DNA of 64,000 nt from an uncultured Candidatus Saccharibacteria bacterium (GCA_964372905.1 CAYJQY010000001.1:8777-72776); one strand, 5' to 3'. Counted from the first letter of the stretch, positions 2,578 to 61,456 are shown. Notes: generated from the sequence alone by a model not told the origin. Program-made: numbers and translations.

Positions 2578-2658
2578 CCGACCCGTATTGCCCAGCAAGT
2601 AGCATTTGCTACCTGCCGACATGTGAGCAACTCTGCTGCTTGCGGGCACCGGCGAGGC
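2578..2658 (-). repeat. intergenic hairpin repeat element, copy A (orientation opposite to copies C-F)
   Basis: Reverse complement reads gcctcgccggtgcccgcaagcagcagagttgctcacatgtcggcaggtagcaaatgctacttgctgggcaa..., alignable with copies at 38796, 41503, 56108 and 61367. Lies between two minus-strand genes. Confidence 0.8.
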
Positions 2659-2666
2659 CATTAAAT

Positions 2667-4169
2667 TTAGTAATTCTGGCACAGCTCCTGGGTGCATTGG
2701 TATCCGGTCTGGCCCGGCGGCGGATTTTCCAGAATGGTCTTAAGTGCAAAAGAGTCAAATTGATCGGAGACCGTGTAAACATAATCCTTGCCGGTAATCG
2801 GATCTGTGGGAATGCTGCTCAAATACGCCGGCGACAACTCGGTCTTATAGTTTTCCACGGGCGGAAACACATAATTTATGGTGGCGTTAACCGGCCGATG
2901 GGCCTCGGAATAAATCAGCAAGGCCGACTTTATGCTTTCAAGATCACGCACCCGCTGGTCATCATTCAAATTAGCCGTTTCCCGCGAAGCGCTTTTCTCG
3001 GCATCAGGCGCGGTAAATTTAATAAGCTGGTTCTGGCTTTCGCTGTAATAAGTAATAGTAAAGTCGAGCGCGGTCTGCGATACTAAATAGCCGTAGACTA
3101 GAGGCGAGAGGTTGACCGGATCGACGGGATTGGTGGCCACGGTCAGGTAGGGCCTTATTTCATTGACCATACTTAAAAAGTCCGGTGATTTGGGAAAAGT
3201 GGGGCGCTCTTTTTTATATTTGATGAGCGCCGCGCCGACTTTGCGGATGGTAGTGAGCCGTTGGGTGTCGCGGTCGAGTACGGCCTGGGGCGAGCGGTCA
3301 AAAGACGAGGGCAGATTTATGCTCGTTCCCCCGGGCGCTCCGCCGCCTTCCACAAAATCGTAGCGGATCAAATTATTCTCCCCAAGCGTGCCAATAGTGG
3401 GTTGGCGCAGCCCAGATTGCTTGACTTTTAATTTAACCTGGGCCAACCGCTCATCAGAATATTTGGTGTTATTGCTGGGATCATAGCCGCCGGCGGCATT
3501 GTCCGCATCGTCGTAGTCCGGATTGCCTGCCGTTCGTTGGTTTAAGGGACTGCCGCCAAAGACGTGGACCTCATCGCCGTCAGCCAGACCATCGCCGTCA
3601 CTGTCAGGATTATTGGGGTCGGTACCATAAGTATATTCCTCAATGTTGGTGAGGCCGTCCTGGTCAGGATCAGCCGCATCGCCGCAGGCGGCCACGTTCT
3701 GACAGGTTTCATTATTGAAAAAGCGGAGCTGCCAATCTGACGGCGTGGTAACGCCCTCAATTTGGGTTGTCGGCGGGGGGGCTTCCTCAACCGGCGGGGT
3801 TTCAGCGGGAGCGGCGGGTTCGTTAACAGGTTCAGTTTGGGTACGGCCGCGGTACAGCATGTACCCGACTACGCCCAGCACAATTAATACTATTACCGCG
3901 ATGCCGGCAATAATGGCTCGCCGCGGCAACGCAGACCTAGCCGCGGCCATAGACGCATCAGCATCTGATAGTTCAAAATTTGGCTCCGCACTGACCTGGG
4001 TTGGGCCTGCGCCTCCGTCTGCGGCGCCGGAAGCGTCAGAGCTGCTTACCAGCGGCCCGGTTGCCCGCTGTTTGGGCAGAAAATTATAGAAAATGTTTTG
4101 GGGCTCGCCCCCGGCCGACGCAGGCGATATAGAACCCGATGGTAACGCAGAAGCCGAATTTTCATCCAT
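2667..4169 (-). CDS. membrane-anchored protein with thrombospondin-type-3-like calcium-binding repeats
   Basis: Single predicted TM helix (IIAGIAVIVLIVLGVVGYMLY). Pro-rich linker. DxDxDG repeats (DPDQDGLTNIEEY, DSDGDGLADGDE). The C-terminal region has a faint pilin-like flavour. Function unknown. Confidence 0.5.
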   Translation of the reverse strand: MDENSASALPSGSISPASAGGEPQNIFYNFLPKQRATGPLVSSSDASGAADGGAGPTQVSAEPNFELSDADASMAAARSALPRRAIIAGIAVIVLIVLGVVGYMLYRGRTQTEPVNEPAAPAETPPVEEAPPPTTQIEGVTTPSDWQLRFFNNETCQNVAACGDAADPDQDGLTNIEEYTYGTDPNNPDSDGDGLADGDEVHVFGGSPLNQRTAGNPDYDDADNAAGGYDPSNNTKYSDERLAQVKLKVKQSGLRQPTIGTLGENNLIRYDFVEGGGAPGGTSINLPSSFDRSPQAVLDRDTQRLTTIRKVGAALIKYKKERPTFPKSPDFLSMVNEIRPYLTVATNPVDPVNLSPLVYGYLVSQTALDFTITYYSESQNQLIKFTAPDAEKSASRETANLNDDQRVRDLESIKSALLIYSEAHRPVNATINYVFPPVENYKTELSPAYLSSIPTDPITGKDYVYTVSDQFDSFALKTILENPPPGQTGYQCTQELCQNY

Positions 4170-4203
4170 AAATTATTTCTTGATTTTTATTATAGGATTT
4201 TTA

Positions 4204-4572
4204 TTACAGGTTAAGGAAAATTTCAGTGGTGATTAAAAACAATATAAGCAAGACCTCAACCCACCAAAATAGCAACCCCGCAGCACTCAACCCCAACGAC
4301 GCAGTCACAAAAATGGCTAAGAACAGAGCTTGGCGAAAACTGGCGGCGAGGTGGAGCACGTAGAGCCCGGGCCGCAGTCGCTGGCGCACCGTAATTCCGA
4401 TTAAACTAAAAAGCCCGAGCGTAAACAAAAATGTGCTTAAATAAAACAGTAAATGTGTGATCCAGCCGGCGCTGTCCGGGTTTGTAAAGCTAATAATCGA
4501 TCCCAGGGAAAATCCCGAAAGAATCGTGCCCGCGCCAATCAGCCAAAGATGGGTTTTAACCGTTTCCGGCAT
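4204..4572 (-). CDS. small hydrophobic membrane protein (hypothetical)
   Basis: 122 aa, 3-4 predicted TM helices, no motif. Confidence 0.4.
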   Translation of the reverse strand: MPETVKTHLWLIGAGTILSGFSLGSIISFTNPDSAGWITHLLFYLSTFLFTLGLFSLIGITVRQRLRPGLYVLHLAASFRQALFLAIFVTASLGLSAAGLLFWWVEVLLILFLITTEIFLNL

Positions 4573-4599
4573 TTAGAGTTTTGAACTCAATAAATTATA

Positions 4600-9753: not shown

Positions 9754-9821
9754 AGTAGTGCCCTATGTTATAGGGCATTAGCACTCGTCGCGGGATGGAG
9801 CAATTGGCAGCTCGCAAGGCT

Positions 9822-10470
9822 CAATCTCGAGGTAAGCTCTTTTTCATGAGTACTAAGTTAAAAGGAGATATAGCAGAGCAAGCCGCCGTTTTAAGGTTAT
9901 TGGAACTCGGCTGGGGTGTCTCAAAACCAATTGGCGACAGACTCCCCTACGATCTAATAGCCGATGTAGATGGCAAGCTTATTAGGCTTCAAGTTAAATC
10001 CGCTTGGTTTAACGCTTTAGATCAAAATTATTGTATTGATGTGAGGCGCACCAAAACAAATCGGCGGCAGATGGTTAGAAGCTTATATGGCGATAAAGAC
10101 TTTGATTTTGCTTTGGTATATCTTCCGGAAAAACGAATCTTTTATGTTTTTCCAATCAATGTATTCATAGGCTTCGGTAGCACATTGTCTTTGGTAGAAG
10201 CTGATAAACGCCAGCGCAAGCCAAAGTCCGCTAACTACCGGGAGGCATTCAAGCTTATCTCACAATGGGCTGCGCCAAGGGCAACCTTGGCGTGATTCCT
10301 GTCAAATTCGGGGAAGCCTCTAGCGGTGGTAATCCCGAGCCAAGGCCCGATGGACATCGGGCAAGGTGTAGAGACTTAATGGCAGGCATCCCGCCGTTCG
10401 GCGGGATGAAGAGAAAGTCCAGACCACAAACCTAGCTTATTACTAGGACAACGAAAGTTGTAGTGGTATG
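9822..10470 (+). mobile_element. group I intron (IC3-like, tRNA-intron type) carrying an ORF
   Basis: The 3' core (10298-10470) reads GUCAAAUUCGGGGAAGCCUCUAGCGG...CCGAGCCAAGG...AAGGUGUAGAGACUUAAUGGCAGG. This parallels the Azoarcus pre-tRNA-Ile intron (GUCAAAUUCGGCGAAACCUAAGCG...CCGAGCCAAGC...AAGGUGUAGAGACUAGACGGCACC), i.e. the P3/P4/P6/P7 elements. A P2-like hairpin CGCCAAGG-GCAA-CCUUGGCG lies at 10264-10283. Confidence 0.7.
9846..10295 (+). CDS. intron-encoded PD-(D/E)xK family putative homing endonuclease
   Basis: 149 aa from ATG 9846 (the ORF-track start at 9795 would read through the tRNA exon). Motif GDIAEQAAVLRLLELGWGVSKPIGDRLPYDLIADVDGKLIRLQVKS, an E...PD-(D/E)xK arrangement like Hjc-type restriction-fold nucleases. 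The position inside a tRNA-fMet group I intron parallels I-Ssp6803I. Confidence 0.6.
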   Translation: MSTKLKGDIAEQAAVLRLLELGWGVSKPIGDRLPYDLIADVDGKLIRLQVKSAWFNALDQNYCIDVRRTKTNRRQMVRSLYGDKDFDFALVYLPEKRIFYVFPINVFIGFGSTLSLVEADKRQRKPKSANYREAFKLISQWAAPRATLA

Positions 10471-10586
10471 CATAACCTTGAGGTTCCGGGTTCGAATCCC
10501 GGTCCCGCAACCAAAAAATTTGAAACTCGTGACAGAGATCGTTTGATCAAAGCCCCTCTGTCCGAGGGGTCTTTGATTGGCCGCGC

Positions 10587-10663: not shown

Positions 10664-10701
10664 GAAAAGAATTTTTTTGGAAGTTCCTATCAATAATACT
10701 T

Positions 10702-20434: not shown

Positions 20435-20510
20435 TGGAGCCGGCTGTCGGACTCGAACCGACCACCTGCGGTTTACGATACCGCTGCTCTACCAGATGAG
20501 CTAAGCCGGC
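20435..20510 (-). tRNA. tRNA-Thr(CGU)
   Basis: Reverse complement GCCGGCT-TA-GCTC-ATCTGGTA-GAGC-A-GCGGT-ATCGTAA-ACCGC-AGGTG-GTCGG-TTCGAGT-CCGAC-AGCCGGC-T-CCA. Confidence 0.85.
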
Positions 20511-20527
20511 GTGACATAAAATTATCC

Positions 20528-24133: not shown

Positions 24134-24302
24134 TCAAACTCCTTAGTACTTATTTTAGTGCTAAAAGAAATTAGTGCTAAAAGAAATTGGGGCCGATTGT
24201 AAGCACGAGCATACTGGCGATAATTGCGATCGCCACCACGTACATAATTCGGTTCAAGCGCTTACGGTCACGAAACATACGCTTCATTATACCACGGAAT
24301 GG

Positions 24303-24392
24303 CCGTCGAGCCAGCTTGCTCGGCGATCAGTATTTGCTCCGGGGGACATATGTGCAACTCTGCTGATCGCGGGCAACTGGCGAGGCGGTCAA
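24303..24392 (-). repeat. intergenic hairpin repeat element, copy B (orientation as copy A)
   Basis: ccgtcgagccagcttgctcggcgatcagtatttgctccgggggacatatgtgcaactctgctgatcgcgggcaactggcgaggcgg. Inner stem gatcagca/tactgatc is compensatory relative to other copies. Confidence 0.8.
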
Positions 24393-24434
24393 CGGCGAGG
24401 ACAGGGACAAGATCATGCATTTTCGGCTCCCGCA

Positions 24435-38721: not shown

Positions 38722-38795
38722 CAGAAGTTGAAATTAGGCCAATAATGGTTAGGATGGCGCATGGTAGGTACTTGTTACCGTCCGCGTCGCTCTTA

Positions 38796-38882
38796 GCCGC
38801 CTCGCCAGTTGCCCGCAAATAACAGAGTTGCGCATATGTCTCTCGGTGCAAATGCTATTTGCCGGGCAAGCTGGCTCGGCGT
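38796..38882 (+). repeat. intergenic hairpin repeat element, copy C
   Basis: gccgcctcgccagttgcccgcaaataacagagttgcgcatatgtctctcggtgcaaatgctatttgccgggcaagctggctcggcg. Inner stem caaataaca/tgctatttg shows paired compensatory changes vs caagtagca/tgctacttg. Confidence 0.85.
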
Positions 38883-38929
38883 CCTGCTGGGAAGTTCAAG
38901 GACTAGCATATGCCATCCTAATCTTACCT

Positions 38930-40309
38930 CTAACCTACGGGCAAATTCACGGGGGCTTGCGACTTCTTGCTCTCAATGGCTTCAACTGGCGCCGCGGTTG
39001 GTTTCTCGGCTTCGGACAATGGGAAGTGATAAATGGTGGCCAGCTCCTCTATGTTCATAACGCTCGCCGGCAGGCCAATCCACACACTGCGGTCTTTGTA
39101 GGCGTTAAATAGCCAGCGCTTGCGCCGGCGCACCTCCCAGTCAATATACGGCTTTTCCAAAGTCGGCGAAAGCAGATAATTTAATTTTGTCCAAGTGTGC
39201 TTAAGATCTGGCTTAAAACCGTTTAACTGCTGCGACTTAAACGGCCTAAGCGCGCCAATGACGCCCGAGCGCTTGTTCAAGTCCAACTGGTTTTTCGGAG
39301 CAATGTAGAGGTTGCGGATCTTGGTTTTGTAGCCGGGCTTGCTGAGCTTGCGCTGAATGGCATTGACCCGTTCCTTTTCCACGTCCGTCATTCTCATCCA
39401 GTTGTTTTTTTCCTTCTGCATGTTTTCGGCTAAGGCACGAGCGTTGCCGCTAAGCAGTGCAGTCCAGCGGAAATTGGCCACAAGCTCGAACGGAGCCAAA
39501 AACAGCCTTTTAAAACTAAAGTCATAAGGCATTTCTTCTCCGATTAGTTCTTTAACCAACCTCTCACCCTTATTTTTCCATTCATTATCGTCCAACGGCT
39601 GAATTAAAATTTGAACGCCGTAAAATTCGTCCGGCTCAACCTGCGCCAGCGCTTCAAACAAGCCGGCCAAAGGATCAATAATTTTCTTTTCGGCTGCCGG
39701 ATGTTCAAATTCCTTATAAGTCTTTATCGGGATAGCCTGATTTTCCAGAACCTTGTATTCAAAGCCAAACAGGTCAAAATCGCCGGTTTCGGGATCGTAA
39801 GTAACGTTTTTGAGGTAATCCTCTACCTCGGTAATTTCCGCCGCAGGGAACTGGGCATAAATGGCTGATTCCACGGTGACGCGCTGCTTTTTGGGAATTC
39901 GCATAATGAAAGAAATTTTTCCCCCCAGACTGACAATTTCCAGCGAATACCACAACTGGATTTTCCCCTCGATATATTTTTCGGCAAAGGTAAAATTCAG
40001 ATGGAGTTGGTGTAACTGGGAAAAAATCTGTTCCACTCCCAGGAGGCTGTGCTCGTTTTCCTTGGGAACCTTGATATGCAAGAAGGTCCAGTTCTGGCTC
40101 AAGCGGAATTGCAGCTGGATTTCTTCCTTATAATGATACCAAAACATGTAAACTACAGCCCAAACAATGGCGATCCAGCCGCCATGGACGGTGAGATACC
40201 ACAAATCGGCCAGGGTTTTACCGAAATCTAAAAAGATACTTTGCAACGAAGCCATACTGTTTGTTTTTTTAGGAGCCTTGCGCCGCGAGGGCGTAAAGAT
40301 TCCGGCCAA
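38930..40309 (-). CDS. hypothetical membrane protein (1 TM) transcribed immediately upstream of the VirD4-like gene
   Basis: 459 aa; TM helix LWYLTVHGGWIAIVWAVVYMFWY; no motif recognised. Confidence 0.4.
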   Translation of the reverse strand: MAGIFTPSRRKAPKKTNSMASLQSIFLDFGKTLADLWYLTVHGGWIAIVWAVVYMFWYHYKEEIQLQFRLSQNWTFLHIKVPKENEHSLLGVEQIFSQLHQLHLNFTFAEKYIEGKIQLWYSLEIVSLGGKISFIMRIPKKQRVTVESAIYAQFPAAEITEVEDYLKNVTYDPETGDFDLFGFEYKVLENQAIPIKTYKEFEHPAAEKKIIDPLAGLFEALAQVEPDEFYGVQILIQPLDDNEWKNKGERLVKELIGEEMPYDFSFKRLFLAPFELVANFRWTALLSGNARALAENMQKEKNNWMRMTDVEKERVNAIQRKLSKPGYKTKIRNLYIAPKNQLDLNKRSGVIGALRPFKSQQLNGFKPDLKHTWTKLNYLLSPTLEKPYIDWEVRRRKRWLFNAYKDRSVWIGLPASVMNIEELATIYHFPLSEAEKPTAAPVEAIESKKSQAPVNLPVG

Positions 40310-41363
40310 CTTTTTTGAACTGTTTCTTATTGGACAAACCGACTAAAATAGTGTTTTTCTTGACCAGCCGGCGCTTGAGCACCTCGTCCACGATTTCGTC
40401 CCGGGACAGGGGCCGCCCGCGCTCGGCCAGAATTTGCTTAATTATATCGGCGACCACGCCGGGTTTGTAACCCCATTCGGCCAGGGCGTAAATGCCACGG
40501 CCGACCAGAACAAATCGCGAGTCTTTAATGAGCTTATTATGCACCGTTTCCTTGTACGCCGTGCGCTTATCCAGGCGATTCTTGTTAATCAAATCGGTAA
40601 TGAGAGAATAGTGCTCGGGCTTACCATGATGCTTCATAACCAAATAGGCCTTGTCGCCCACATCCCTGGGCTTGATTTCATTCCAATGCTTAAGGCCAAA
40701 CTCGTCGAATGAGTTTTTTTCCACCTCGGCCGAGGTATGGAGGAAATTGCCGATAACTTTATCGGCGAAAGCCGCGCTGTTGGCACGGTAAAATTCGGTT
40801 TGTTTGAAGGCTTCCAAAAACTGCTCCAGGGACATGGGCTTACCTTGCGATTCAAATATCCTCTTGGCCTCATTGAGAAAGTCATCAAGCAGCTGTTTGC
40901 TGAAACCGACGCCGGCCCAGGAATGCCGGAGCTTATCGTGCTTCACCGGCTCGAGCTCCTGCAGGACGTTGAGCAAAAATCTCACGGCATTGGCCTCTTC
41001 TTCCGAGGTGACGCTTAAAAATTGCATAAGCTGGAGTTCTGCCATAATGCCGCCATGCTCCAAAATGGAGTTGAGCAGGAGATCGCGCGCTTGGGCCAGC
41101 TCACGTTCGTTCTGGATGCTGCGGCGGAGCTGCTTGAGCAGTTCCTTTTCAATCTGGCGCACGCGCTCGCGGGTTAACCCCTGCTCCTCGCCTACGGTTT
41201 TTAGCGTAGCAATGGAGTGGCCTTGCAAGCCATAGCGCTTGGCTAAAATATTCCGCTCTCGTTCCTTGAGAGGCTCAAAAATCTTATTAACAATCATGCT
41301 TAACTCAAATTGGCGCAATGATTGCTGTTGCTGCGTATCAATGATTTTATCTAAAATTCCCAT
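40269..41363 (-). CDS. protein with N-terminal sigma-70 region 4 helix-turn-helix followed by ~290-aa uncharacterised domain
   Basis: ERNILAKRYGLQGHSIATLKTVGEEQGLTRERVRQIEKELLKQLR matches sigma70 region 4.2 (xLRLRFGL...TLEEVG...TRERIRQIE.KALRKLR). The rest is unassigned. Confidence 0.5.
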   Translation of the reverse strand: MGILDKIIDTQQQQSLRQFELSMIVNKIFEPLKERERNILAKRYGLQGHSIATLKTVGEEQGLTRERVRQIEKELLKQLRRSIQNERELAQARDLLLNSILEHGGIMAELQLMQFLSVTSEEEANAVRFLLNVLQELEPVKHDKLRHSWAGVGFSKQLLDDFLNEAKRIFESQGKPMSLEQFLEAFKQTEFYRANSAAFADKVIGNFLHTSAEVEKNSFDEFGLKHWNEIKPRDVGDKAYLVMKHHGKPEHYSLITDLINKNRLDKRTAYKETVHNKLIKDSRFVLVGRGIYALAEWGYKPGVVADIIKQILAERGRPLSRDEIVDEVLKRRLVKKNTILVGLSNKKQFKKVGRNLYALAAQGS

Positions 41364-41502
41364 ATATAAGAGGAAAAACTACTTGCGTAGACATTAACTA
41401 CGTTTCATTAACCACAGTATAGCACAAATTTCTCTTATTGTCAAATATTTGGCCTAACAAAATTCTAACCAAAAATAGGCAAGGATCTTGTCCCTATCCT
41501 AA

Positions 41503-41593
41503 GCCGCCTCGCCGGTTGCCCGCCAGCAGCAGAGTTGCACATATGTTTCTCGGTGCAAATGCTGCTGGCTGGACACACCGGCTTCGGCGGCCT
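41503..41593 (+). repeat. intergenic hairpin repeat element, copy D
   Basis: gccgcctcgccggttgcccgccagcagcagagttgcacatatgtttctcggtgcaaatgctgctggctggacacaccggcttcggcggcc. Inner stem ccagcagca/tgctgctgg is compensatory. Confidence 0.85.
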
Positions 41594-41643
41594 GTGGATC
41601 ATTTCAAAACCTTTGCCTCTTTCTAGATTAGATATAGGCAAAC

Positions 41644-42534
41644 TTATGCTTTTCGTGTCCGCCATTTCTGCCATAGCACCAAAATGGGACTGGCCACGAA
41701 AATTGAGGAATAGGTTCCCGTAATTATTCCAATAAATAAAGCCAAAACGAAATAGCGGATAGTTTCGCCGCCGAAAAGCAAGAGCGCCAGCAAAACAAAA
41801 AGCACCGTTAAGCTCGTATTGAGCGAGCGCACCAGGGTTTGAGTGATGCTGCGGTTAACAACGAACTCCAGGGTCTGGCCAGCGTAAACTTTCAAATTTT
41901 CGCGGATGCGGTCGAACACGACTATAGTATCATGCACGCTGAAGCCCAGCACGGTGAGCATAGCCGTAACAAACATACTGTCTATCTCCACTCCTTTGAA
42001 ATGGCCGAGCAAAGAAAAAATCCCCAGCACCACCAGCAAGTCATGAAGTAAAGCGATAATCGCCGCCCAACCAAACCGCCAGGGCGTAACAGGCCGGCTC
42101 ACGCGCCGGAACGCGTAAGCAATATACAGCACAATTCCTATCGAAACTAAAGCCAACTGCTTTATGGCATTGCTCGTCAGTTCCTTGCCGATAACCGGAT
42201 CAATAAACTCAAAACGGCTTTCATCAAACTCGCCGACTTCGGATTTAAGCTTATCCAAAATTTGGTTGTGCTGGTCATTATCGATTCTTTTGGTGCGAAT
42301 GATCAGCCCGCTATTATCCGTGGTTTGCAAAAGGAACTCGCCGACTTGCGCCCCCGTCAGCACTTCCCGTACCTTTGCCGCGTCATAGGACTGCTTGAAC
42401 CGCAATTCCATCAAACTGCCGCTGGTAAAGTCAATGCCCGGCTTGAGTCCGAACAAAATCAGCGAAACAATCCCCGTGAGCACTATGACTCCGGAAAAAG
42501 CAAAAAGGTATTTGTAATAATTAAGTAATTTCAT
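41644..42534 (-). CDS. secF: protein translocase subunit SecF
   Basis: 296 aa, 6 TM helices, SecD/SecF family sequence; downstream of secD. Confidence 0.85.
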   Translation of the reverse strand: MKLLNYYKYLFAFSGVIVLTGIVSLILFGLKPGIDFTSGSLMELRFKQSYDAAKVREVLTGAQVGEFLLQTTDNSGLIIRTKRIDNDQHNQILDKLKSEVGEFDESRFEFIDPVIGKELTSNAIKQLALVSIGIVLYIAYAFRRVSRPVTPWRFGWAAIIALLHDLLVVLGIFSLLGHFKGVEIDSMFVTAMLTVLGFSVHDTIVVFDRIRENLKVYAGQTLEFVVNRSITQTLVRSLNTSLTVLFVLLALLLFGGETIRYFVLALFIGIITGTYSSIFVASPILVLWQKWRTRKA

Positions 42535-47495: not shown

Positions 47496-47822
47496 CTAGC
47501 GTTTGAAAATCGACCCCAAACGGCGCCGCAAACTGACGCGCTTGTCTTTGGGCTTTACTAATTGTTCCTTGATCTTGGGGATGACTAGATCCAAGGCCTC
47601 GTAAAAGTCGTTACCGTGGACATCAGCATATTGCCCATGGGGCTGAATATGAACCTCTGCCCGATAGGCGCCGGAGCCGGCATGCTTTAAATCATATTCA
47701 ACTTCAACATGGATTTTGTCTTCGGGCTGCAGAAATCTGTCCAAAACCGAAAGCTTGTCCTCTACAGCGGCGCGAATCGCCGGCGTGAGGGTTGTGTTAG
47801 TGGCTTTGATGTTGATGTACAT
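47496..47822 (-). CDS. hpf: ribosome hibernation promoting factor (short HPF/RaiA)
   Basis: MYINIKATNTTLTPAIRAAVEDKLSVLDRF...VHIQ, the sigma-54 modulation protein/S30EA fold. Confidence 0.8.
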   Translation of the reverse strand: MYINIKATNTTLTPAIRAAVEDKLSVLDRFLQPEDKIHVEVEYDLKHAGSGAYRAEVHIQPHGQYADVHGNDFYEALDLVIPKIKEQLVKPKDKRVSLRRRLGSIFKR

Positions 47823-47852: not shown

Positions 47853-47882
47853 AAGTCTATTCTGCTGCTCGCGAGCACCTGG
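47853..47882 (-). repeat. truncated copy (3' half only) of the intergenic hairpin repeat
   Basis: ctgctgctcgcgagcacctggcgaggctg matches the terminal arm (ctgctgcttgcgggcaccggcgaggcc) of copy A; lies between hpf and murB. Confidence 0.55.
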
Positions 47883-47890
47883 CGAGGCTG

Positions 47891-48985
47891 TTATAGGGCA
47901 AAATAATTTTTAAGCTCGGCTTCGCTAAATCCCACCAGTTCCGGCTCCAAATCCAATTTCATACCGGTCCTGGCATAGACCGTTTGGCGGACCTGCTTCA
48001 TTAGACTTAACACATCATGAGCGGTGGCCGTACCGCTATAATTGAGCAGGACCAGGGGTTGGGTTTCGTTGATTTTTGCGCCGTCAACGCGCGCGCCTTT
48101 CAGACCACAAAGATCGATTAAAAAAGCCGTGGGGATTTTTATGCCTTCTGGTCCGCTAAGCCGCGCGCGGTAATTCTGAAGTTTGTCTAAAATCACATCA
48201 TTAAAATTTTCTTTAATTTTTTTTGATAAAAACTCGAAGTCAGTTTCGGATATAACCAAATTTTTGAAAAACGAACCGGCATTGGGAATTTTATCGGGCG
48301 TAGTAAATTTCTTGTTTCTGATTTCGATGATAGCCGCGCGGATTTGACTCAAAGTCGGTTGACTGATACCGCGTTGGGTGAAATATGCTTGAACATCGGC
48401 ATAACTTAAATTGGGCCGCCCGCCGGGATGCAGCCGCAAAGCCGTTTGTAAAATTATGTAACGGCCTTTTTGCGTGGTGTTAAAAATGCTTTTGCGATAA
48501 GCGAAACCGCACTCCGAGTTAAACAATAATTTGATAGTATTATCGGTTAAATCTAAAGCCCTGACCCATTCCACGACCTGACTGGCCTCCTGCCCGTAAG
48601 CGCCCACGTTTTGCACGGCAAAAGCGCCCACGCTGCCGGGAATGTGAGAAAGATTTTCTATTCCCCACCAGCCGCGTTCCGCGGCCAGCGTCGCCACATC
48701 ATCCCAGCGTTCGCCAGCCGAACAATGTAGCAATATGTCGCCATTGGCTTCAGCCGAAGTTATGCCGGTAATTTCCAGTTTGATCACCAAGCCGTCGAAG
48801 CCGCGGTCACTAATGAGCAGATTGCTGCTGCCTCCGATCAATAAAATTGGCAGATGCTCTTGTTTGGCGCGTTCAATGGCTTGGCGAAGTTCGCCCAGAG
48901 TTTTGACGCGACAAAACAAGCGGGCCGGGCCGCCGATGAGGAAACTGGCGTATCGGGCTAGCGGGATATTGTTTTGAAAATCCAT
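47891..48985 (-). CDS. murB: UDP-N-acetylenolpyruvoylglucosamine reductase
   Basis: FAD-binding N-terminus (LIGGPARLF...ILLIGGSSNLL) and MurB C-terminal domain. Confidence 0.8.
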   Translation of the reverse strand: MDFQNNIPLARYASFLIGGPARLFCRVKTLGELRQAIERAKQEHLPILLIGGSSNLLISDRGFDGLVIKLEITGITSAEANGDILLHCSAGERWDDVATLAAERGWWGIENLSHIPGSVGAFAVQNVGAYGQEASQVVEWVRALDLTDNTIKLLFNSECGFAYRKSIFNTTQKGRYIILQTALRLHPGGRPNLSYADVQAYFTQRGISQPTLSQIRAAIIEIRNKKFTTPDKIPNAGSFFKNLVISETDFEFLSKKIKENFNDVILDKLQNYRARLSGPEGIKIPTAFLIDLCGLKGARVDGAKINETQPLVLLNYSGTATAHDVLSLMKQVRQTVYARTGMKLDLEPELVGFSEAELKNYFAL

Positions 48986-53805: not shown

Positions 53806-54913
53806 GCACTGCCTTAAAATCTTTCGCGGTGCGCTCCCAAGAAAACTGTTTGGCCCGCTCTAAACCGCGCTGAATTAATTTCTCTCGCAACTCATCATCC
53901 CCGAGAACGTCTTCAATCGCGCGGGCTAAATCGCTGCTGTCATGAGGGTTGACAAGCAACGCCGCCTGGCTCAACACTTCAGGCAAACTAGCCACCTGAC
54001 TGGCAATAACCGGGACGGCCAAAGCCATGGCTTCCAAGGGTTGAAAACCAAAGCCTTCATAAAAACTCGGGTAAATCAGAGCCCGGGCTAATTTCATGAT
54101 AAAGGGCTTGTCGGCAGCCGACACGTAGTCCAGATAGCTAATATAGCGCGCCCGCGGGCTCCGTTCAATGCTATCCAAAATACTGCGGTACTTCCACCCG
54201 CGCTTCCCGGCAATGACCAGATGAGTCGGGCGCGGCAACCGTTCCATGGCAGAAATAACCCCAGAAAGATTTTTCCGCGGCTCAATGGTATTAAGGAAAA
54301 GTATAAAATCGCCGGGCAAATTGTAGCGATTGCGCACGTCGCGCAGCTGCTCCACGGCCAAATCCGGATGGAACAGTTTATGGTCAATTCCCGGATGGAC
54401 CACGCGGATCTTTTCGGACGGGATCTCAAACAGTCGGACTATCTCATCTTTAGTAAATTGCGACACCGGGCAAATAACTGTGGCGCGCTCCAGCGTTCGG
54501 CGCACGTTCAGCAGTTTGTGCCACAACCGACCTTTAAAATTATACAATTCGGGAAACACAAACGGCGAAAGATCATGGACCGTAACCGCTAACTTGGTTT
54601 TAGGCGAAATACTAAATTGATTCAAATTCGGCAAAAACAGCAAATCAAAATCGCCGACCAGGCGCTCAAAGGTGGGCTGTCTTGTGAGCTTGAGCGACAA
54701 ATTAAGCAAACGGTTGGGAATGCGCCGCGCTACCAAGCGCGAATTGACAAAATGAAGCTGGCCGAAACTGCGCCGGCTAAAGCCGGTATAAAAAAGGGTA
54801 TACGTATTGGAGCGATCCAGCGGAATCAGATGCTCCAAAACATTAATAATGTAATTTTCCACTCCGCTGTATTCCTTAGAATGCAATGAACGGAGGTCAA
54901 CGACTATGTTCAT
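53783..54913 (-). CDS. GT4-family (group 1) glycosyltransferase
   Basis: YEGFGFQPLEAMALAVPVIAS motif of GT4 enzymes. Confidence 0.75.
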   Translation of the reverse strand: MNIVVDLRSLHSKEYSGVENYIINVLEHLIPLDRSNTYTLFYTGFSRRSFGQLHFVNSRLVARRIPNRLLNLSLKLTRQPTFERLVGDFDLLFLPNLNQFSISPKTKLAVTVHDLSPFVFPELYNFKGRLWHKLLNVRRTLERATVICPVSQFTKDEIVRLFEIPSEKIRVVHPGIDHKLFHPDLAVEQLRDVRNRYNLPGDFILFLNTIEPRKNLSGVISAMERLPRPTHLVIAGKRGWKYRSILDSIERSPRARYISYLDYVSAADKPFIMKLARALIYPSFYEGFGFQPLEAMALAVPVIASQVASLPEVLSQAALLVNPHDSSDLARAIEDVLGDDELREKLIQRGLERAKQFSWERTAKDFKAVLDYAYRL

Positions 54914-56094
54914 GCTTCACGACCTCCTGTCGGGGTCGTGTCCCGGTTCACCTCCGCTGGGTGCTCGGCTGCCGCCTGCGCGCCCAGCGGAGGGCCTCCA
55001 AACCGGGCCACCCCTCCGCTAAGCATTACTTGCTCGACGAAGCCCCTAATTTTTTTTATAAACTCATCTTTACTAAAAATGACTGCGTGATCCTGAAGTG
55101 CTTGCTGATTATAGCGCTTTTCGTCCCACTCGAGGAAATATTTTTTGATGATCCTGGGGTCGGCGCTGGGAAAAAGTTCGCCGGTTACACCCGGTATTAC
55201 CGTTTCCAAGGACCCTCCCTGGCCTAAGGCCAAAGTGGCCGTGCCGCAGGCCGCGGCTTCCAGCGGCATCAAACCAAAATCCTCTTTATGGGGATAGATG
55301 AAACCGCGCGCACCGCTGTACTCGTCGCGCAAAACTTCATCGGGAACGGGACCCAAAAATTTTATATTTGGCTTGGCCACCGCTTGCAAAAATTTTTCCC
55401 GCCGCCCGGTTCCCACCACGTGCAACTCCCAACCCAGTTCATTAAACAGCTCGACGATGAGTTGATTATCTTTATGGGCATGAAGACGGCCGCCGATCAA
55501 AAAATAATTTTGTTTGGCTCTGGTGGAATGCCAAAATCTGGTATCAACATAGGGATGAATAATTGTGCTTGGTTTGTGATAATAGCGTTCAATTCTTTGC
55601 TGCACCTCGCGGGAATTGGCAATAAAATGGTCAACGCGCTGGGCCGCGGCTAAATCCCAACGGCGCAGCCAGCGCAAAAAAAGTTTAGCGAGCGGGCGGA
55701 CTGGCCAGGACACTTCCTCATTTACGTAGCTTAAATCGGTCCAAAGAAAGCGCGTGGGCGTATGGCAATAACTGATGTGAACCGCGCCTTTGGGCACCTT
55801 CACGCCTTTTGCAAACGCCGAGCTTGACGATAAAACCACCTGGCAATCAGGCAAGCCTAAAGACCTTACGGCTGCGGGGATGAAAATCAGCCAATACTGC
55901 AGCCGGGGCAACAGATTATAAAAGCCCTGCAGCCAACTCGTGACCACGCGCCAATTTTGAAAACGTCCCGCAAGTCTACGATCAAGGACCAAAGTAAAAA
56001 GCGGCGCGTCGGGAAAGCACTCGCGCAGCGCCTCGAGCACGCGCTCCGCTCCCCCCAGCTGCGTTAACGAATCATGAACCAGAGCGATTTTCAT
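54910..56094 (-). CDS. GT4-family (group 1) glycosyltransferase
   Basis: GT-B fold, KEDFGLMPLEAAACG motif. Confidence 0.75.
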   Translation of the reverse strand: MKIALVHDSLTQLGGAERVLEALRECFPDAPLFTLVLDRRLAGRFQNWRVVTSWLQGFYNLLPRLQYWLIFIPAAVRSLGLPDCQVVLSSSSAFAKGVKVPKGAVHISYCHTPTRFLWTDLSYVNEEVSWPVRPLAKLFLRWLRRWDLAAAQRVDHFIANSREVQQRIERYYHKPSTIIHPYVDTRFWHSTRAKQNYFLIGGRLHAHKDNQLIVELFNELGWELHVVGTGRREKFLQAVAKPNIKFLGPVPDEVLRDEYSGARGFIYPHKEDFGLMPLEAAACGTATLALGQGGSLETVIPGVTGELFPSADPRIIKKYFLEWDEKRYNQQALQDHAVIFSKDEFIKKIRGFVEQVMLSGGVARFGGPPLGAQAAAEHPAEVNRDTTPTGGREA

Positions 56095-56107
56095 TTAGGT
56101 TATTTGC

Positions 56108-56194
56108 CGCTGCCTCGCCAGTTGCCCGCAAGTAGCAGAGTTGCGCGTATGGCTACAGGTAGCAATGCTACTTGCGCGGCAAGCTGGCTCGGCA
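56108..56194 (+). repeat. intergenic hairpin repeat element, copy E
   Basis: gctgcctcgccagttgcccgcaagtagcagagttgcgcgtatggctacaggtagcaatgctacttgcgcggcaagctggctcggcagc. Confidence 0.85.
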
Positions 56195-56206
56195 GCTAAA
56201 ACTTAG

Positions 56207-57688
56207 CTAATAATCCGCACTCGACTTTTCTCCAAAAAACAACATAACAAATGACTTAGCCAGAATGGTAACGTCCAGCCGCAAACTCCAGTTCTCAATA
56301 TAATAAGTGTTGAGCCGGATTTCCTCCTCAAAAGGCAGGTCCGGCCAGGTGACCTGCGCCAACTGCGACATGCCAAAAACTCCGGGCTTAATGGAAAACA
56401 TGCGGCGGTAGCGCGCGCGGTACTTTTCCACCTCGTCCAAGACATGGGCGCGCGGCCCCACCATGCTCATATCGCCGTTAAATACGTTCCAGAACTGCGG
56501 GATCTCGTCGAGCTTGGTGCGGCGCAAAAACCGGCCCACGCGGGTAACGCGCGGGTCGTCCTTTATCTTCAAGAACGGACTCTGCTCGCCGCCGCGGTCA
56601 TTTTTTTTCCACAATTCCTGGCGCACGCGGTTGGCCTGCTCGCCGCCGAAATCCTCGCCGACGCTTAAATGCGCGTACATCGTCCGAAATTTATAAAACC
56701 GAAAGTCTTCACCGTGCCCACCGCGCATCGCGTGATAAATTGCCGGCCCGCTACTGTCCAGCTTTATGGCCAGATAAATCAGGACAAACAGCGGCGAGGT
56801 AATAATCAAACAGACCGCACTAACCAGAATGTCCGTGGCGCGTTTGGCTACTTTTCCCCATCCGTCCAGGGGCGTATTTTTTAAACTGATAACCGGGACG
56901 CCGTAAAAATCATTAACTTCAATAGCATTGCGCTGAACTTCAAATAGATTAGGCGCAAAACTAAATTGCAGCCCCTTGTTGCGGGCGAATTCGACCAGAC
57001 GCAAGTTGCGCTCATCGGACAGAGCGGGGTTAGTCTGCAAAATTTCGTCAATCTGACTGTCGTTGTAAAGCTGCTGCAGTTCATCAAAAATATTTTCCGA
57101 ATAGGCCAATTCGCGGACCACGCGATAACCGTGGTTCTTATCATGCAGCATTGACTTAATAATTTTCGATTCCGGATTGCTGCCGTTAATAATGACTAAT
57201 TTATGAAGTCCCCGGCCGCGGCCAAATTGATAATTCTGGATTAGGCGCAAAATTGACCGGCCCAGCATCACAAAAATGATGCCCAAAACCCAACCGGCCA
57301 GAATAATGAAACGGGAAGGGAATAAAGATTGGTTAAAGAAAAACAAAACTATCACAACAAACAGTCCCAGCGATACCCCAATGACGACACGACCCAACTC
57401 CTGACTGAATTTTCTGGTGCCGCGCAAATTGTATAGGCCTAGGGCGGCAAAGGCCAAAAGAAGAAGCGGAATCACCAAGTAAACAATGCCCAAGAATTCG
57501 GGCAACTGCAACTGATAGATTACCGGCCCCACAAGGTTTAGGGAGTGCAGGCGCAAATAAAAAGAAGCGAGCCCTGCCGCACACAGCATCAGGGCATCAA
57601 CAGGCAAAGAAACGAGATTAAAAATAAGTTCGGTGCGTTTCATTTCGTAGATATCATTATACGATTTTCCGCACCATTTGGCAATCAA
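56207..57688 (-). CDS. undecaprenyl-phosphate sugar phosphotransferase (WbaP/bacterial sugar transferase family)
   Basis: C-terminal catalytic domain [20 protein letters not shown]...[29 protein letters not shown]. Possible later start at MKRTELIF (~57643). Confidence 0.8.
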
Positions 57689-57814: not shown

Positions 57815-57817
57815 CTT

Positions 57818-58190
57818 TGAGGCTCCAAGCAAACTCGTAAGCCGAATTCTGTTTTTAAATAATCATCTATCTGGGCGGGTCATTGCTGGCACGCTCGTCG
57901 CAGCCTACCTAACTTGGCTTTGCACTCAAGTAAGAGTTTTGCCGTTTCACCTCTGGCGTTGCCGTCAGAGTTCATCCCGCCATGCCTTGCGGCAAAAGCG
58001 GCATGCCTTAACCTTTCGGGTCGGGCGTCACTGTTCGCATCTCGCGGATTACTCCGGGCGGGTGTTACCCGCTACCTGCGTTGATATCTCTATAGAGGGT
58101 ATCAACCGAGTGTTCGGACTTTCCTCCCCTGACTGACTGCAATAATTTGCCGCCGGCCAGGAGCGATTATTCGATTTGCTTGAAGCCCAC
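57818..58190 (-). ncRNA. rnpB: RNase P RNA, bacterial type A
   Basis: The minus-strand read contains GGAGGAAAGUCCGAAC (P4 5' strand), AGGUAGCGGGUAACACCCGCC, GGUGAAACGG and GUAGGCUGC...GCCAGCAAUGACC...AGAUAGAUGAUUA...ACAGAAUUCGGCUUAC (P4 3' strand). These closely parallel the E. coli M1 RNA blocks. P1 is formed by GGGCUUCAAGCAAAUCG and CGAGUUUGCUUGGAGCCUC. Confidence 0.8.
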
Positions 58191-58254
58191 AAATATTATC
58201 AGTTTTCAGCGGCGGCGTCAAGACCGCGTGAGGCAGACCGCCATGGTCTGGTAG

Positions 58255-58539: not shown

Positions 58540-58640
58540 AAGGTTTATTTTTTCTGTTTTTAATCTCCCTCACAAGCATACTAAAAAACAGCATATCGTG
58601 CCAACGGCCGGATAGCATGTTCATGAAAAGACATTGAAAT

Positions 58641-59075
58641 TTACTCATGCTTATTTAGCTTCAATCTTTCTTTCACATTTAAAAAAACCTGGTGTAGTAG
58701 TTCCTCATCAACTGCATTAACCCGTTCTCGTAACGCATTTAACAAGGAACCATAAGCCACACTACCGCTATGTTTAAGTATTTGTACAATAAGAGCTTCG
58801 TAGAAATTTACTTTCACGGCGGAAGTAAGTGCTCCGCGTTCCGCTACGGCTGTATGACCGTAAAGCTCCCGTAACTGATCGAAATTAGATGCCTGGAGTC
58901 GATCTAGTCTCTCTAATGTTTCAGGAATACTAGACGCATCAATAGTTTCGTCCAGCCTAACTTCCGGGTTGTAAATTTCTCCATTCATATACAGGGCAAG
59001 AAAATATCGATAAATTACGCCTAGCGCTTTTTCCATTCCGGCGCCAAAATCGCGTGCAACACTGTGTCGCGCCAT
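58641..59075 (-). CDS. hypothetical protein
   Basis: 144 aa, helical, lower GC than surroundings; no motif. Confidence 0.35.
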   Translation of the reverse strand: MARHSVARDFGAGMEKALGVIYRYFLALYMNGEIYNPEVRLDETIDASSIPETLERLDRLQASNFDQLRELYGHTAVAERGALTSAVKVNFYEALIVQILKHSGSVAYGSLLNALRERVNAVDEELLHQVFLNVKERLKLNKHE

Positions 59076-59590
59076 TTGCCGTAACGCAGGCGGCGATGCC
59101 GCAACACGCCTTCGCGCTTGAAACCGTTTTTCATAAGTACTTTTACCGAAGCCGGATTATCGGCGAACACGCCGGCGCGCACGCGGTGCAATTTAAGCTT
59201 ACGGAAGGCCAATTCAAGCATTAACCCTATCGCCTCGGTCATAAGGCCTTTGCCCCAAAATGGCTTGCCCAGCCAGTAGCCCAATTCGGCGCTTTGATTG
59301 GGCCAGTCAAAATCCTGAAAACCAATGACGCCGACTACCTCATCAAAACCCTTTACGGTAATTGCGTAATTAATGATCTTGTCCGCACGCTGCAAAGCCC
59401 AAGAATGCCGGATAAATTTTATAGCGCCGTTTTTCGGATAAGGATACGGAATGTGCAAGGTCCACCTGGTGATGTCGCGGTGCTTGACATAGCGATAAAT
59501 ACTAGGCGCGTCAGAGAGCTTTAGTTTTCGAAGTAAAACTTTTTTGCCGATAATTTGCTCGGGTAATTTTTTCAAGCTACCGGATTCCAT
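59021..59590 (-). CDS. GNAT-family N-acetyltransferase (RimJ/RimL-like)
   Basis: Acetyl-CoA binding core VVGVIGFQDFDWPNQSAELGYWLGKPFWGKGLMTEA. Start at internal MESGSL (the ORF-track start at 59725 overlaps the upstream gene). Confidence 0.75.
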   Translation of the reverse strand: MESGSLKKLPEQIIGKKVLLRKLKLSDAPSIYRYVKHRDITRWTLHIPYPYPKNGAIKFIRHSWALQRADKIINYAITVKGFDEVVGVIGFQDFDWPNQSAELGYWLGKPFWGKGLMTEAIGLMLELAFRKLKLHRVRAGVFADNPASVKVLMKNGFKREGVLRHRRLRYGKWRDTVLHAILAPEWKKR

Positions 59591-59592
59591 AA

Positions 59593-59973
59593 TTATTGCA
59601 GCAGTTGCTGAATGTCTTGCTGTCTGATTTGCTCGATTTGCTGTGGGGTCACGCCGGCCGTAGAGAATAGCGCTTTGATGAACAACCAAGTACCGATGAT
59701 AACGACGGCGGTTAGCACCAGGCACATCAAAGCTACGGATTTGCCGTCATCGCGGTCATCAAAAAAATAATATTTTACGGCGAAAAGCAAGCCAAAGGGC
59801 GGCACGAGCAAAGAAACCACATACGCCCTCGTTTTGGCCTTGCTGGAAATGCGGTTCTCGTCTTGCTTCTGCAGGGCGCTCATCATCAAACCGGCCACAT
59901 CAACATTTTTGTCCTGTTTGGCCAGTTCCTGATACTGTTCTAAAGTTTCGCTTAATTGTTTGTCTTCGTCCAT
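59593..59973 (-). CDS. hypothetical small membrane protein
   Basis: 126 aa, two TM helices, Q-rich C-terminus. Confidence 0.35.
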   Translation of the reverse strand: MDEDKQLSETLEQYQELAKQDKNVDVAGLMMSALQKQDENRISSKAKTRAYVVSLLVPPFGLLFAVKYYFFDDRDDGKSVALMCLVLTAVVIIGTWLFIKALFSTAGVTPQQIEQIRQQDIQQLLQ

Positions 59974-60018
59974 AATTTGATTAGATCGCGCTCTTTGTAT
60001 AACATTCTCAAAATATTG

Positions 60019-60606
60019 CTACCTTTTTTGATAATGCAGCAGCACTGCGCCGGCATCGTTCAGCTGTTTCATCTCTACTAATTTGAGGCGACGCAACTCG
60101 TACTCCAGGCCTGCCAACAGCGGCACGCCGGCGCCAAACAAAAACGGCTCAATGGTAATGTACCAATCATCAATCAAGCCGTGGTCGACAAAGTAACCGT
60201 AGGTGCGCGCGCCGCCGAGCAGGCCGACCTGTTGAAAATTTTGCCGGCGGCAAAACTCCACCACATCGGTTTGGCTGGGATTTATGAACCAGACATGGGG
60301 ATGGCGCTCTTCGACCCCCTGGGCGCTGCCGGTAAAGACAATAGTGTTGCGCTTCATCAGCGGCGCTTGGGCTGTCTCAAAAGTGTTGCGGCCCACCACC
60401 ACGGCCTGGCACTGCCGAAGCTGCTCGCGCATAAACTGCTTGTCCTCGGGCGAGGTCCAGTCGGAAAAATGTTTGGCGTCGCGGCCGATTTTGCCGTCAA
60501 TGCTAACGGCGACGATGGCCGCGAAACGGGGCCGGCTTGCGGCTGGCGCGCCTGCCTGCTTTAGTTCTTGCGTTTGCTGTCCGTTTTGTGCTGTATTTTC
60601 GTTCAT
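60019..60606 (-). CDS. RibD C-terminal domain / dihydrofolate-reductase-like reductase
   Basis: FAAIVAVSIDGKIG...VVGRNTFE...GGARTYGYFVDHGLIDDWYITIEP pattern of DHFR-like (bacterial bifunctional deaminase-reductase C-terminal) proteins. Start taken at internal MNENTAQ. Confidence 0.6.
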   Translation of the reverse strand: MNENTAQNGQQTQELKQAGAPAASRPRFAAIVAVSIDGKIGRDAKHFSDWTSPEDKQFMREQLRQCQAVVVGRNTFETAQAPLMKRNTIVFTGSAQGVEERHPHVWFINPSQTDVVEFCRRQNFQQVGLLGGARTYGYFVDHGLIDDWYITIEPFLFGAGVPLLAGLEYELRRLKLVEMKQLNDAGAVLLHYQKR

Positions 60607-61351
60607 ACAAATGCTTAAGAATAGGATAATACAAATCTTGTTTTGGCGCGATAGTAATTTTTTTGGCGCTTGGTATATCAACAAATTTGATAAACTTGGC
60701 GCCGCGCAGCACCAACAGCGGCGTGCGTTCGCTCCCCTCGCCCATCATCAGCACGGCCATGCTGGAAAGCACGTCAACAATGTTAGCGCGAGTATATTTC
60801 AAAGTACGCCCAAACACGTCCTTTTTGCCGCGATAATCGTAAAGCGGCTCGAGCCCGTAAAAACCCACTGAAATTCCGGTGACGCCGGCGCGCAACGGCT
60901 GGGTATGGCTATCCGTAGCCACCAACGCCAGCTTCTTTATTTTAAATTTATTTTTTAAATAACTGCGCAACTCTTTGAGCAAACCGTTAACGTTGCGCGG
61001 CCACAATACATAATAACCCCGCCCGTTGCTTTCATCAATCCCGGCCGAAGGAATAAGCGCGTGGTCTTTTATGGTGAGATAAAAATCGTGTTCCGCAACT
61101 TTGCTTGGCGGGAGCCAGGCCCTGGCTTCGCGTTTTATCAATTGAGTTTTCAATTTCTCCTGCGATTTTTTATCGATAGGAATTTTTACTGTTCGCGCTT
61201 GATGAATGGCTAAAATTTTAGAAGTTATGAATAACGCGTCGCCCTCGCGCAGGCGGCCGGCACGCGAACGCGCCAGCGATTCATCGAGCAAATCAAACAA
61301 ATTGTCCCGCGGCGGCCGAAAGGCGCGGGTCTTTATCGGAATAAATTCCAT
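60503..61351 (-). CDS. CofE-like (F420-0:gamma-glutamyl ligase family) protein
   Basis: LIPSAGIDESNGRGYYVLWP and overall ~250-aa core reminiscent of the F420_ligase family. Basic C-terminal tail overlaps the next gene. Tentative. Confidence 0.45.
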   Translation of the reverse strand: MEFIPIKTRAFRPPRDNLFDLLDESLARSRAGRLREGDALFITSKILAIHQARTVKIPIDKKSQEKLKTQLIKREARAWLPPSKVAEHDFYLTIKDHALIPSAGIDESNGRGYYVLWPRNVNGLLKELRSYLKNKFKIKKLALVATDSHTQPLRAGVTGISVGFYGLEPLYDYRGKKDVFGRTLKYTRANIVDVLSSMAVLMMGEGSERTPLLVLRGAKFIKFVDIPSAKKITIAPKQDLYYPILKHLYERKYSTKRTANARTKAGRRASRKPAPFRGHRRR

Positions 61352-61366
61352 TAGAAATCATTTAGT

Positions 61367-61456
61367 CGCCACCTCGCCAGTTGCCCGCAAGTAGCAGAGT
61401 TGCGCATATGTTTCTCGGTGCAAACATTACTTGCCGGGCAAGCTGGCCCGGCGGCG
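61367..61456 (+). repeat. intergenic hairpin repeat element, copy F
   Basis: gccacctcgccagttgcccgcaagtagcagagttgcgcatatgtttctcggtgcaaacattacttgccgggcaagctggcccggcggcg. Confidence 0.85.

Follow-up and report, generated by a model that had tools for sequence, protein, structure and literature searches.

The ERIC/IRU elements of enterobacteria, the Correia/NEMIS elements of Neisseria and the RUP/BOX elements of pneumococci are co-transcribed, palindromic bacterial miniature inverted-repeat transposable elements (MITEs) of approximately 100-150 bp. REPINs, such as those of Pseudomonas fluorescens SBW25, are doublets of REPs (repetitive extragenic palindromes) that form hairpins and are mobilised by REP-associated tyrosine transposases (RAYTs) (PMC3116915). 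Literature searches found no REP-, REPIN- or MITE-type repeats described from the Patescibacteria, or candidate phyla radiation (CPR), whose genomes are small and streamlined. Here, we present a family of hairpin repeats from a stretch of 64,000 nucleotides (hereafter the window) of an uncultured Candidatus Saccharibacteria bacterium (GCA_964372905.1 CAYJQY010000001.1:8777-72776), and show that the genome of this member of the Patescibacteria contains real, previously uncatalogued dispersed repeats. Each unit is an imperfect palindrome, ~90 bp long. In the 64-kb window we count six complete copies (85-92 nt) and a half copy consisting of a left arm alone, at a density of about one copy per 10 kb.

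We put the probability at roughly 0.6 that the family belongs with MITE/REPIN-like DNA repeats, being dispersed, lineage-specific and non-autonomous, and mobile or selfish, with any RNA-level consequences probably being secondary. A first-pass annotation of the window had offered a REP/BIME-like or MITE-like element and a structured RNA or terminator family side by side. The unit is repeated and its arms co-vary; a palindromic repeat acting at the DNA level is favoured by its absence from the orthologous sites of relatives, its occurrence in both orientations, hairpins that fold about equally on the two strands, a decayed half copy and breaks in assemblies. The RNA or terminator reading is unsupported because there is no U-tract, no promoter- or terminator-like match in the cores and no Rfam match. 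The repeat is a potential strain-typing and lineage marker, as well as a natural test of how stable hairpins beside stop and start codons affect operon expression where regulatory machinery is minimal.

Copies and genomic setting

The six full copies and the partial copy were recovered by repeat, pattern and covariance-model searches where the first-pass annotation had placed them. Their cores, in window coordinates and with scores from a covariance model (R1) built from the six full copies, are as follows.

2576..2660, minus strand: copy 1, core only (82 bits)
24301..24392, minus strand: core of copy 2, downstream of lepA (24435-26231) (95.6 bits)
38796..38884, plus strand: core of copy 3 (105.4 bits)
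41503..41593, plus strand: core of copy 4 (104.8 bits)
47861..47892, minus strand: half copy, left arm only (CCTCGCCAGGTGCTCGCGAGCAGCAGAATAG), from pattern match and alignment
56109..56196, plus strand: copy 5, core only (92 bits)
61368..61458, plus strand: copy 6, core only (99.2 bits)

The repeat search returned a direct family of four members (38796-38881, 41503-41588, 56109-56194 and 61368-61453; 78-90% identity to the reference) together with inverted matches to these four at 24299-24398 and 2576-2648, which are 74-84% complementary. A pattern for the left arm and apex, CCTCGCCN{2,3}TGCCCGCNNNNNNCAGAGTTGC, matched six times, at exactly the six full copies, with none expected: no match occurred in any of 100 dinucleotide-preserving shuffles of the window. 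R1 scored the six copies at 82-105 bits, and the next independent match in the window reached 18 bits with filters off. The half copy fits the left-arm pattern CCTCGCCRGNTGCYCGCNANNNRCAGA at 47861-47887 on the minus strand without a mismatch (0 expected) and, by manual count on the alignment, agrees with the consensus at 27 of 32 positions; it has no right arm. The apical module had been described as conserved, which holds in part, its GGUGCAAA half being changed in the copies at 2576 and 56109. Copy 1 is the most diverged, with a 1-nt deletion in the left arm and an altered apex.

The window is a run of housekeeping genes lying nearly all on the minus strand, including the ATP synthase operon, a mur/ftsW/murJ cluster, lepA, secA, secDF, hpf and several glycosyltransferases. 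The map of open reading frames (ORFs) and a reading of the flanks agree with the earlier description that the copies lie between two co-directional minus-strand genes in either orientation. The consensus is on the transcribed strand in two full copies and the half copy and is antisense in the other four, and the order along the window (-, -, +, +, half -, +, +) shows no clean switch. The three core-only copies nearly fill their spacers. In copy 1 the consensus strand is the transcribed strand; the upstream gene, for a TSP3-repeat protein (2667-4169), has its stop 6 nt ahead of the copy, and the ATG of the downstream tRNA_bind gene (2201-2563) follows after 12 nt. For copy 5, the upstream gene encodes a Bac_transf sugar transferase (56207-57688; stop 10 nt away) and the downstream gene a GT4 glycosyltransferase (54910-56094; ATG 14 nt away). 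Copy 6 is separated by 5 nt from the stop of an upstream hypothetical gene (61464-62126) and by 16 nt from the ATG of a downstream F420-ligase-like gene (60503-61351), whose start at 61351 was confirmed by an alignment that runs from residue 1. The half copy begins 1-2 nt past the murB stop codon, upstream of hpf (47496-47822). The core of copy 2 is followed by a TGGTATAAT box and then by a conserved 33-codon ORF. The neighbours of copy 3 are a gene for a hypothetical protein (38930-40309) and one for a TrwB/TraG-like ATPase (36853-38721), and copy 4 lies between secF (41644-42534) and a sigma70_r4/HARE-HTH gene (40269-41363). With the flanking extensions of some copies counted, which are described below, copies start 1-17 nt past a stop codon.

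The Logan assemblies of ERR4904390, ERR4904391 and ERR4904392 contain the same organism, and three of their contigs end at the identical base inside copy 4, where the sequence becomes common with copy 6. Copy 1 was found identical in two Logan contigs (L096 and L097). Since the sequences recur in independent Logan assemblies of three runs, an assembly artefact is ruled out, and the shared break point is the behaviour of a true genomic repeat in k-mer assembly. At ~1 copy per 10 kb and filling whole spacers, the family gives a practical reason why metagenome-assembled CPR genomes break. A separate duplication in the window, the tRNA-Thr genes at 20435-20511 and 63865-63941 (both minus strand, anticodons CGT and TGT, 97% identical over 77 nt), also breaks assemblies, as Logan contig L095 of the same organism starts inside the second one.

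Orthologous sites and distribution

The best LepA and SecF relatives are metagenomic Patescibacteria. The nearest named genomes are those of Candidatus Doudnabacteria (LepA 70-71%), found in a LepA-seeded scan of GTDB that otherwise gave mostly distant phyla. Three orthologous sites were examined in relatives at 69-85% protein identity, and all three lack the element, which is the presence/absence pattern by which MITEs are recognised.

At the lepA site, the relatives' contigs L001 and L002 (LepA 83-84% identical) keep the gene order murJ-lepA-small ORF-bPH-divIC-rotamase and have 30-40 nt from the lepA stop to the TATAAT box of the small ORF; the window is ~125 nt longer. At the secF site, L088-L091 (SecF 85%) and L092 (79%) have an ordinary A-tract/stem/T-tract terminator between the stop and the promoter, in place of which the window carries a 169-nt palindromic block; the promoter of the gene after secF, TTGACA-17-TGTGCTATACT, is conserved in the window, in L088-L091 and in L092. 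At the F420-ligase-like site, the spacer of L093 (69%, with the gene order kept) measures 32 nt and holds an 8-bp hairpin and a TATAAT box, where the window has a 91-nt core.

Two side observations belong to these sites. A-tract/stem/T-tract hairpins are found in the relatives at L088 1290-1330, L092 1290-1325 and L093 4968-4990, for example AAAGGCCACCTTTGCGAATCCTCGCAAAGGTGGCCTTT after secF. Additionally, the 33-35 codon ORF directly downstream of lepA (MFRDRKRLNRIMYVVAIAIIASMLVLTIGPNFF; about 24176-24277 on the minus strand of the window, 3597-3698 in L001 and 2404-2508 in L002) has one predicted hydrophobic helix and is kept in two relatives; its mRNA may be leaderless, the distance from an extended -10 box (TGGTATAAT) to the ATG being only ~7 nt.

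The verdict of the first-pass annotation that this is not a known family was borne out in every library searched (Rfam, GTDB, JGI, IMG/VR, plasmids and phages). An exact-pattern scan of GTDB species representative genomes gave no family member, and neither did two patterns run on IMG/VR or BLAST searches of plasmids and phages; the pattern scan of JGI metagenomes gave no family member and two matches, both chance ones inside coding sequence. These chance matches apart, the arm pattern is confined to the 6.5 copies of the window and is without a match in any public collection scanned. R1 found no copy in ~190 kb of related Patescibacteria DNA (158 kb of lepA loci, 24 kb of close relatives and 12 kb of L093/L094); a 13-bit match in L088-L091 proved to be the local terminator hairpin and was rejected as a copy. 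The empty sites, together with the lack of an R1 match in the relatives' contigs, indicate that the family has expanded in, or has been retained only by, a narrow lineage.

Hairpin structure and covariation

Each full copy folds into one long hairpin on both strands (RNA -34 to -60 kcal/mol, z -2.4 to -7.0), and the hairpins also form under DNA parameters. The half copy was considered as a mini-hairpin and rejected, having no significant fold of its own. The termini of the unit are inverted (GCCGCCTCGCC...GGCTCGGCGGC) and the whole unit is an inverted repeat, in the manner of MITE terminal repeats.

The consensus structure, whose outer and middle stem are conserved, has 33 pairs, of which seven show two-sided changes that keep the pair (11 cells). 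Shuffles gave 3.2 pairs and 3.5 cells, and only 2/500 (pairs) and 0/500 (cells) reached the observed values; slid controls gave 0-2. The concerted change of the inner-stem arms between copies, which had been noted at the outset, is thus upheld above both shuffled and slid controls, with only about five compensatory pairs being solid because the two outermost depend on the uncertain alignment of the copy at 2576. Mismatches across copies comprise 8 G.T against 11 A.C, with no strand bias of wobble type. The left arm has 22 invariant paired columns out of 33 and the right arm 12 (pairwise identity 85% vs 72%), an asymmetry that is a trend only (sign test p about 0.1); the better preservation of the left arm and apical module hints at one-sided, sequence-specific recognition.

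Compensatory changes in a DNA palindrome do not separate an RNA role from a DNA role, because hairpin-dependent transposition, as in REPINs, and template switching between arms yield the same pattern. REPINs transpose in a hairpin-dependent manner and compensatory stem changes are reported there too (PMC3116915). When replication switches template from one arm of an imperfect inverted repeat to the other, the arms become more alike and can lengthen (PMC8604942, PMC13100816 and PMC7202029). In this regard, the family carries a caution of general use: where a DNA repeat is palindromic, compensatory changes in its stem are not evidence for a functional RNA.

Flanking extensions and super-hairpins

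The additional homologous or palindromic flanks of the copies at 24301, 38796 and 41503 had been missed in the first-pass annotation. These flanks are as follows.

24393..24425, minus strand: left extension of copy 2 (CCGAAAATGCATGATCTTGTCCCTGTCCT...), sharing homology with the flank on the left of copy 4
38749..38774, plus strand: left arm of the outer inverted repeat of copy 3 (TTAGGATGGCGCATGGTAGGTACTTG), from alignment and fold
38897..38921, plus strand: right arm of the outer inverted repeat of copy 3 (CAAGGACTAGCATATGCCATCCTAA), from alignment and fold
41464..41502, plus strand: left extension of copy 4, consisting of outer-repeat arm TCTAACCAAAAATAGGCAAGGATCTTG and spacer TCCCTATCCTAA
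41605..41632, plus strand: right arm of the outer inverted repeat of copy 4 (CAAAACCTTTGCCTCTTTCTAGATTAGA), from alignment and fold

Copies 2 and 4 share ~30 nt left of the core, CCRAAAAT..GATCTTGTCCCTRTCCT (local alignment score 31, equalled in 0/200 shuffles), and copy 3 carries this homology weakly. In copies 3 and 4 the outer inverted repeats produce super-hairpins. That of copy 3 spans 173 nt (38749-38921), with the whole spacer at -79.6 kcal/mol (z -4.6), while in copy 4 the pairing of 41464-41490 with 41605-41632 gives 169 nt (41464-41632), and the 207-nt spacer folds as a single hairpin of -98.8 kcal/mol (z -9.7). The outer stem of copy 4 is terminator-like, reading in the sense of transcription as an A-tract, a stem and UAUUUUUGG. 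The outer arms of copies 3 and 4 match within each copy and barely between the copies, and the three enlarged copies (2, 3 and 4) are the three in roomy spacers.

This anatomy has three possible readings. The core may have been inserted into the apex of pre-existing hairpins, on the basis of the terminator at the secF site of relatives and of the outer stem of copy 4, which still ends in UAUUUUUGG. Alternatively, the palindromes may have grown outward by template switching where the spacer allowed it, or the ~170-nt long form may be the full element, against which stand the core-only copies without ends, which are hard to explain if the full element measures ~170 nt. A more far-reaching proposal, which we regard as unlikely, is that a self-propagating core seeks out hairpins already present between genes, for example terminators, and inserts at their apex, and that the composite palindrome is then kept perfect and grows by template switching, so that super-hairpins of 169-173 nt arise at 38749-38921 and 41464-41632. 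The hints for it, none of which is decisive, are the terminator hairpin at the secF site of relatives, the 8-bp hairpin in the F420-ligase-like spacer and the copy-specific outer arms. If it were true, a hairpin-targeting miniature element would be rebuilding terminators and operon junctions in a streamlined Patescibacteria genome, and the mobilising enzyme would possibly be of a new kind.

Weighing the explanations

As a mobile or selfish DNA repeat, the family would have spread in this Patescibacteria lineage after the split from its nearest sampled relatives, and would persist only in short spacers behind stop codons. An enzyme encoded outside the window would move the repeat in trans, and it may recognise the better-kept left arm and apical module (CCTCGCCAGTTGCCCGC-N6-CAGAGTTGCRCATATG), probably as a folded single strand. 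The complementarity of the arms could be kept by the propagation of hairpin-competent copies only, by template switching between the arms in replication, or by both. Lying in co-directional gene strings, the copies are probably co-transcribed; the mRNA would then contain a hairpin of -35 to -60 kcal/mol, which might affect 3' end stability, RNase processing or translation of the next gene; such effects would be a by-product and not the reason for the family.

Several observations weigh against this explanation. No transposase, RAYT or integrase was found with Pfam among the ~60 ORFs of the window. No target-site duplication was seen, the flanks of 6/6 copies sharing no direct repeat, and filled and empty sites are too diverged for base-by-base alignment; left flanks end in TTAA, TTGA, CTTA, CTAA or TTAG in 5/6 copies, which at n=6 is inseparable from the AT-rich composition of the spacers. 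The copies differ from one another by 10-26% and no recent movement is therefore demonstrated. If the long form were the mobile unit, it would be awkward that core-only copies lack the flanking extensions of the three others. Logan contigs extend the window by 4 kb on its left side (gyrB-secE-nusG-rplK) and contain no new copy there, with 68 kb of the genome covered. The absence from relatives at 69-85% protein identity could also be loss, and a host-selected 3' mRNA element would be expected just as much to have all its copies directly behind stop codons.

Such an element, a host-selected cis-acting RNA hairpin serving as operon punctuation, as 3' end protection against exonucleases or as an RNase III-type processing site, is an alternative that we consider unlikely. 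REP/BIME and Correia elements, once co-transcribed, have been proposed to act in mRNA protection or processing, and here too the copies lie inside co-directional gene strings 1-17 nt past stop codons, their RNA hairpins are very stable and two-sided changes keep the arms complementary. The occurrence of both orientations, however, means that two different RNAs would be needed for the same job, wobble mismatches lack a strand bias, and the best-kept part is one arm plus the apex and not the pairing itself. Further, the sites of relatives are empty in 3/3 cases, with ordinary terminators or very short spacers there, and the hairpins have no Rfam match: at the gathering threshold, Rfam 15 recognised nothing in the whole window beyond RNase P, tRNAs and a group I intron, and at E<=10 it gave only a chance snoRNA match in the region 38700-41700, which holds two copies.

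A double-stranded DNA site for a host protein, with a part in nucleoid architecture, replication and segregation or regulation and conserved for recognition, is improbable. Its attractions are the well-kept left arm and apical module (22/33 vs 12/33 invariant columns) and the fairly regular spacing of ~1 per 10 kb, but the asymmetry reaches only p about 0.1 and orientation shows no clean switch along the window. Moreover, an operator needs no 90-bp palindrome with compensatory arm changes, the orthologous sites of relatives are empty and a half copy exists.

Highly improbable is a family of intrinsic terminators, possibly bidirectional, that happen to share sequence, for which the repeated terminator hairpins of mycobacteria and the paired uptake sequences of Neisseria and Haemophilus offer a comparison. 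The hairpins do follow stop codons, and copy 4 occupies the terminator site of the relatives with an outer stem that ends in UAUUUUUGG. Against this, none of the core hairpins has a U-tract behind it in the transcript, the copy 4 outer stem being the only one that ends in TATTTTTGG; promoter and terminator consensus scans found nothing at the cores; and three copies lie 12-16 nt before the next ATG in apparent operons. The relatives, and other loci of this genome, use canonical A-stem-T terminators, which are easily seen there, as are canonical promoters. Independent small-RNA genes with their own promoters are barely credible, for although the 85-92 nt structures are compact and stable with a conserved apical module, they have no promoter- or terminator-like signals in or beside the cores, in a genome that shows clear sigma-70-type promoters at other places. 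They are also wedged 5-16 nt from coding sequences, lack an Rfam match and are absent in relatives.

Other features of the window

Directly downstream of copy 3, the gene at 36853-38721 (minus strand) encodes a TrwB/TraG/HerA-like coupling-protein ATPase with type IV secretion family domains, lying among housekeeping genes.

At 9790-10513 (plus strand), a tRNA gene is apparently split by a group I intron of ~650 nt, and ARAGORN made no call. The 5' exon-like part GCGGGATGGAGCAATTGGCAGCTCGCAAGGCTCA lies at about 9790-9823 and the 3' exon-like part ...ATAACCTTGAGGTTCCGGGTTCGAATCCCGGTCCCGCAACCA at about 10468-10513, with an Rfam Intron_gpI core between them (10251-10463, 72 bits). If the exons were joined, the anticodon loop would read CT-CAT-AA, that is, tRNA(CAU). 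An ORF in the intron region (9795-10295) encodes a PD-(D/E)XK endonuclease (PDDEXK_5, E 6.9e-47).

The gene at 1041-2180 (minus strand) encodes a 379-aa protein that combines tRNA-synt_2d, the core of the phenylalanyl-tRNA synthetase alpha type, with a C-terminal FDX-ACB anticodon-binding domain. Immediately upstream of it, 2201-2563 (minus strand) encodes a separate 120-aa tRNA_bind protein, and no canonical beta subunit adjoins. The RNase P RNA at 57822-58182 (minus strand; bacterial class A) scores 103.5 bits against a gathering threshold of 100 and has several shortened helices; the marginal score and the short helices fit a divergent Patescibacteria lineage.

Comparison with known systems

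Integron attC sites are imperfect palindromes of 57-141 nt that lie behind the ORFs of co-directional arrays and undergo recombination in a folded, single-stranded form. An assignment of the repeats to attC sites was rejected, as they occur in both orientations, have no RYYYAAC/GTTRRRY core sites at their ends and have no integrase in the window. Unlike the cassettes beside attC sites, their neighbours are core housekeeping genes (lepA, secDF, murB and glycosyltransferases).

Quasipalindrome correction and growth by template switching (PMC7202029, PMC8604942 and PMC13100816) explains why the arms match better within than between copies and may explain the copy-specific outer inverted repeats of copies 3 and 4. 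Template switching is a mutational mechanism and not an element family, and it leaves the dispersal to unrelated loci unexplained.

With REPINs (PMC3116915), the family shares an extragenic and dispersed distribution, a hairpin of ~70-110 nt, decayed partial copies, highly conserved outer parts beside a variable inner stem with common compensatory changes, and the absence of a classical target-site duplication. It differs in that its arms alone are not short REP palindromes (z +0.33 for the left arm and -0.71 for the right, no better than shuffles) and that no GTAG-type tetranucleotide is conserved, one being present in copies 5 and 6 only. A RAYT gene (Y1 transposase, IS200/IS605-like) was likewise not among the ~60 window ORFs in the Pfam search, and the host is a member of the Patescibacteria, for which the literature searches found no such elements reported.

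Like MITEs of the ERIC, Correia and RUP type, the repeats are imperfect palindromes in transcribed spacers, lie in either orientation, have size variants, show presence or absence at orthologous sites and form long RNA hairpins if co-transcribed. In contrast to these MITEs, they have no sequence similarity in any library searched and no TA or other target-site duplication, and their shorter variants lack the outer parts and not an internal segment. To our knowledge, there is no autonomous insertion sequence with ends that match this repeat. Because the arms are not REP palindromes, and because there is no cleavage tetranucleotide, no target-site duplication and no transposase, RAYT or integrase in the window, the family can be filed with neither group, although its way of working is that of REPINs or of co-transcribed bacterial MITEs.

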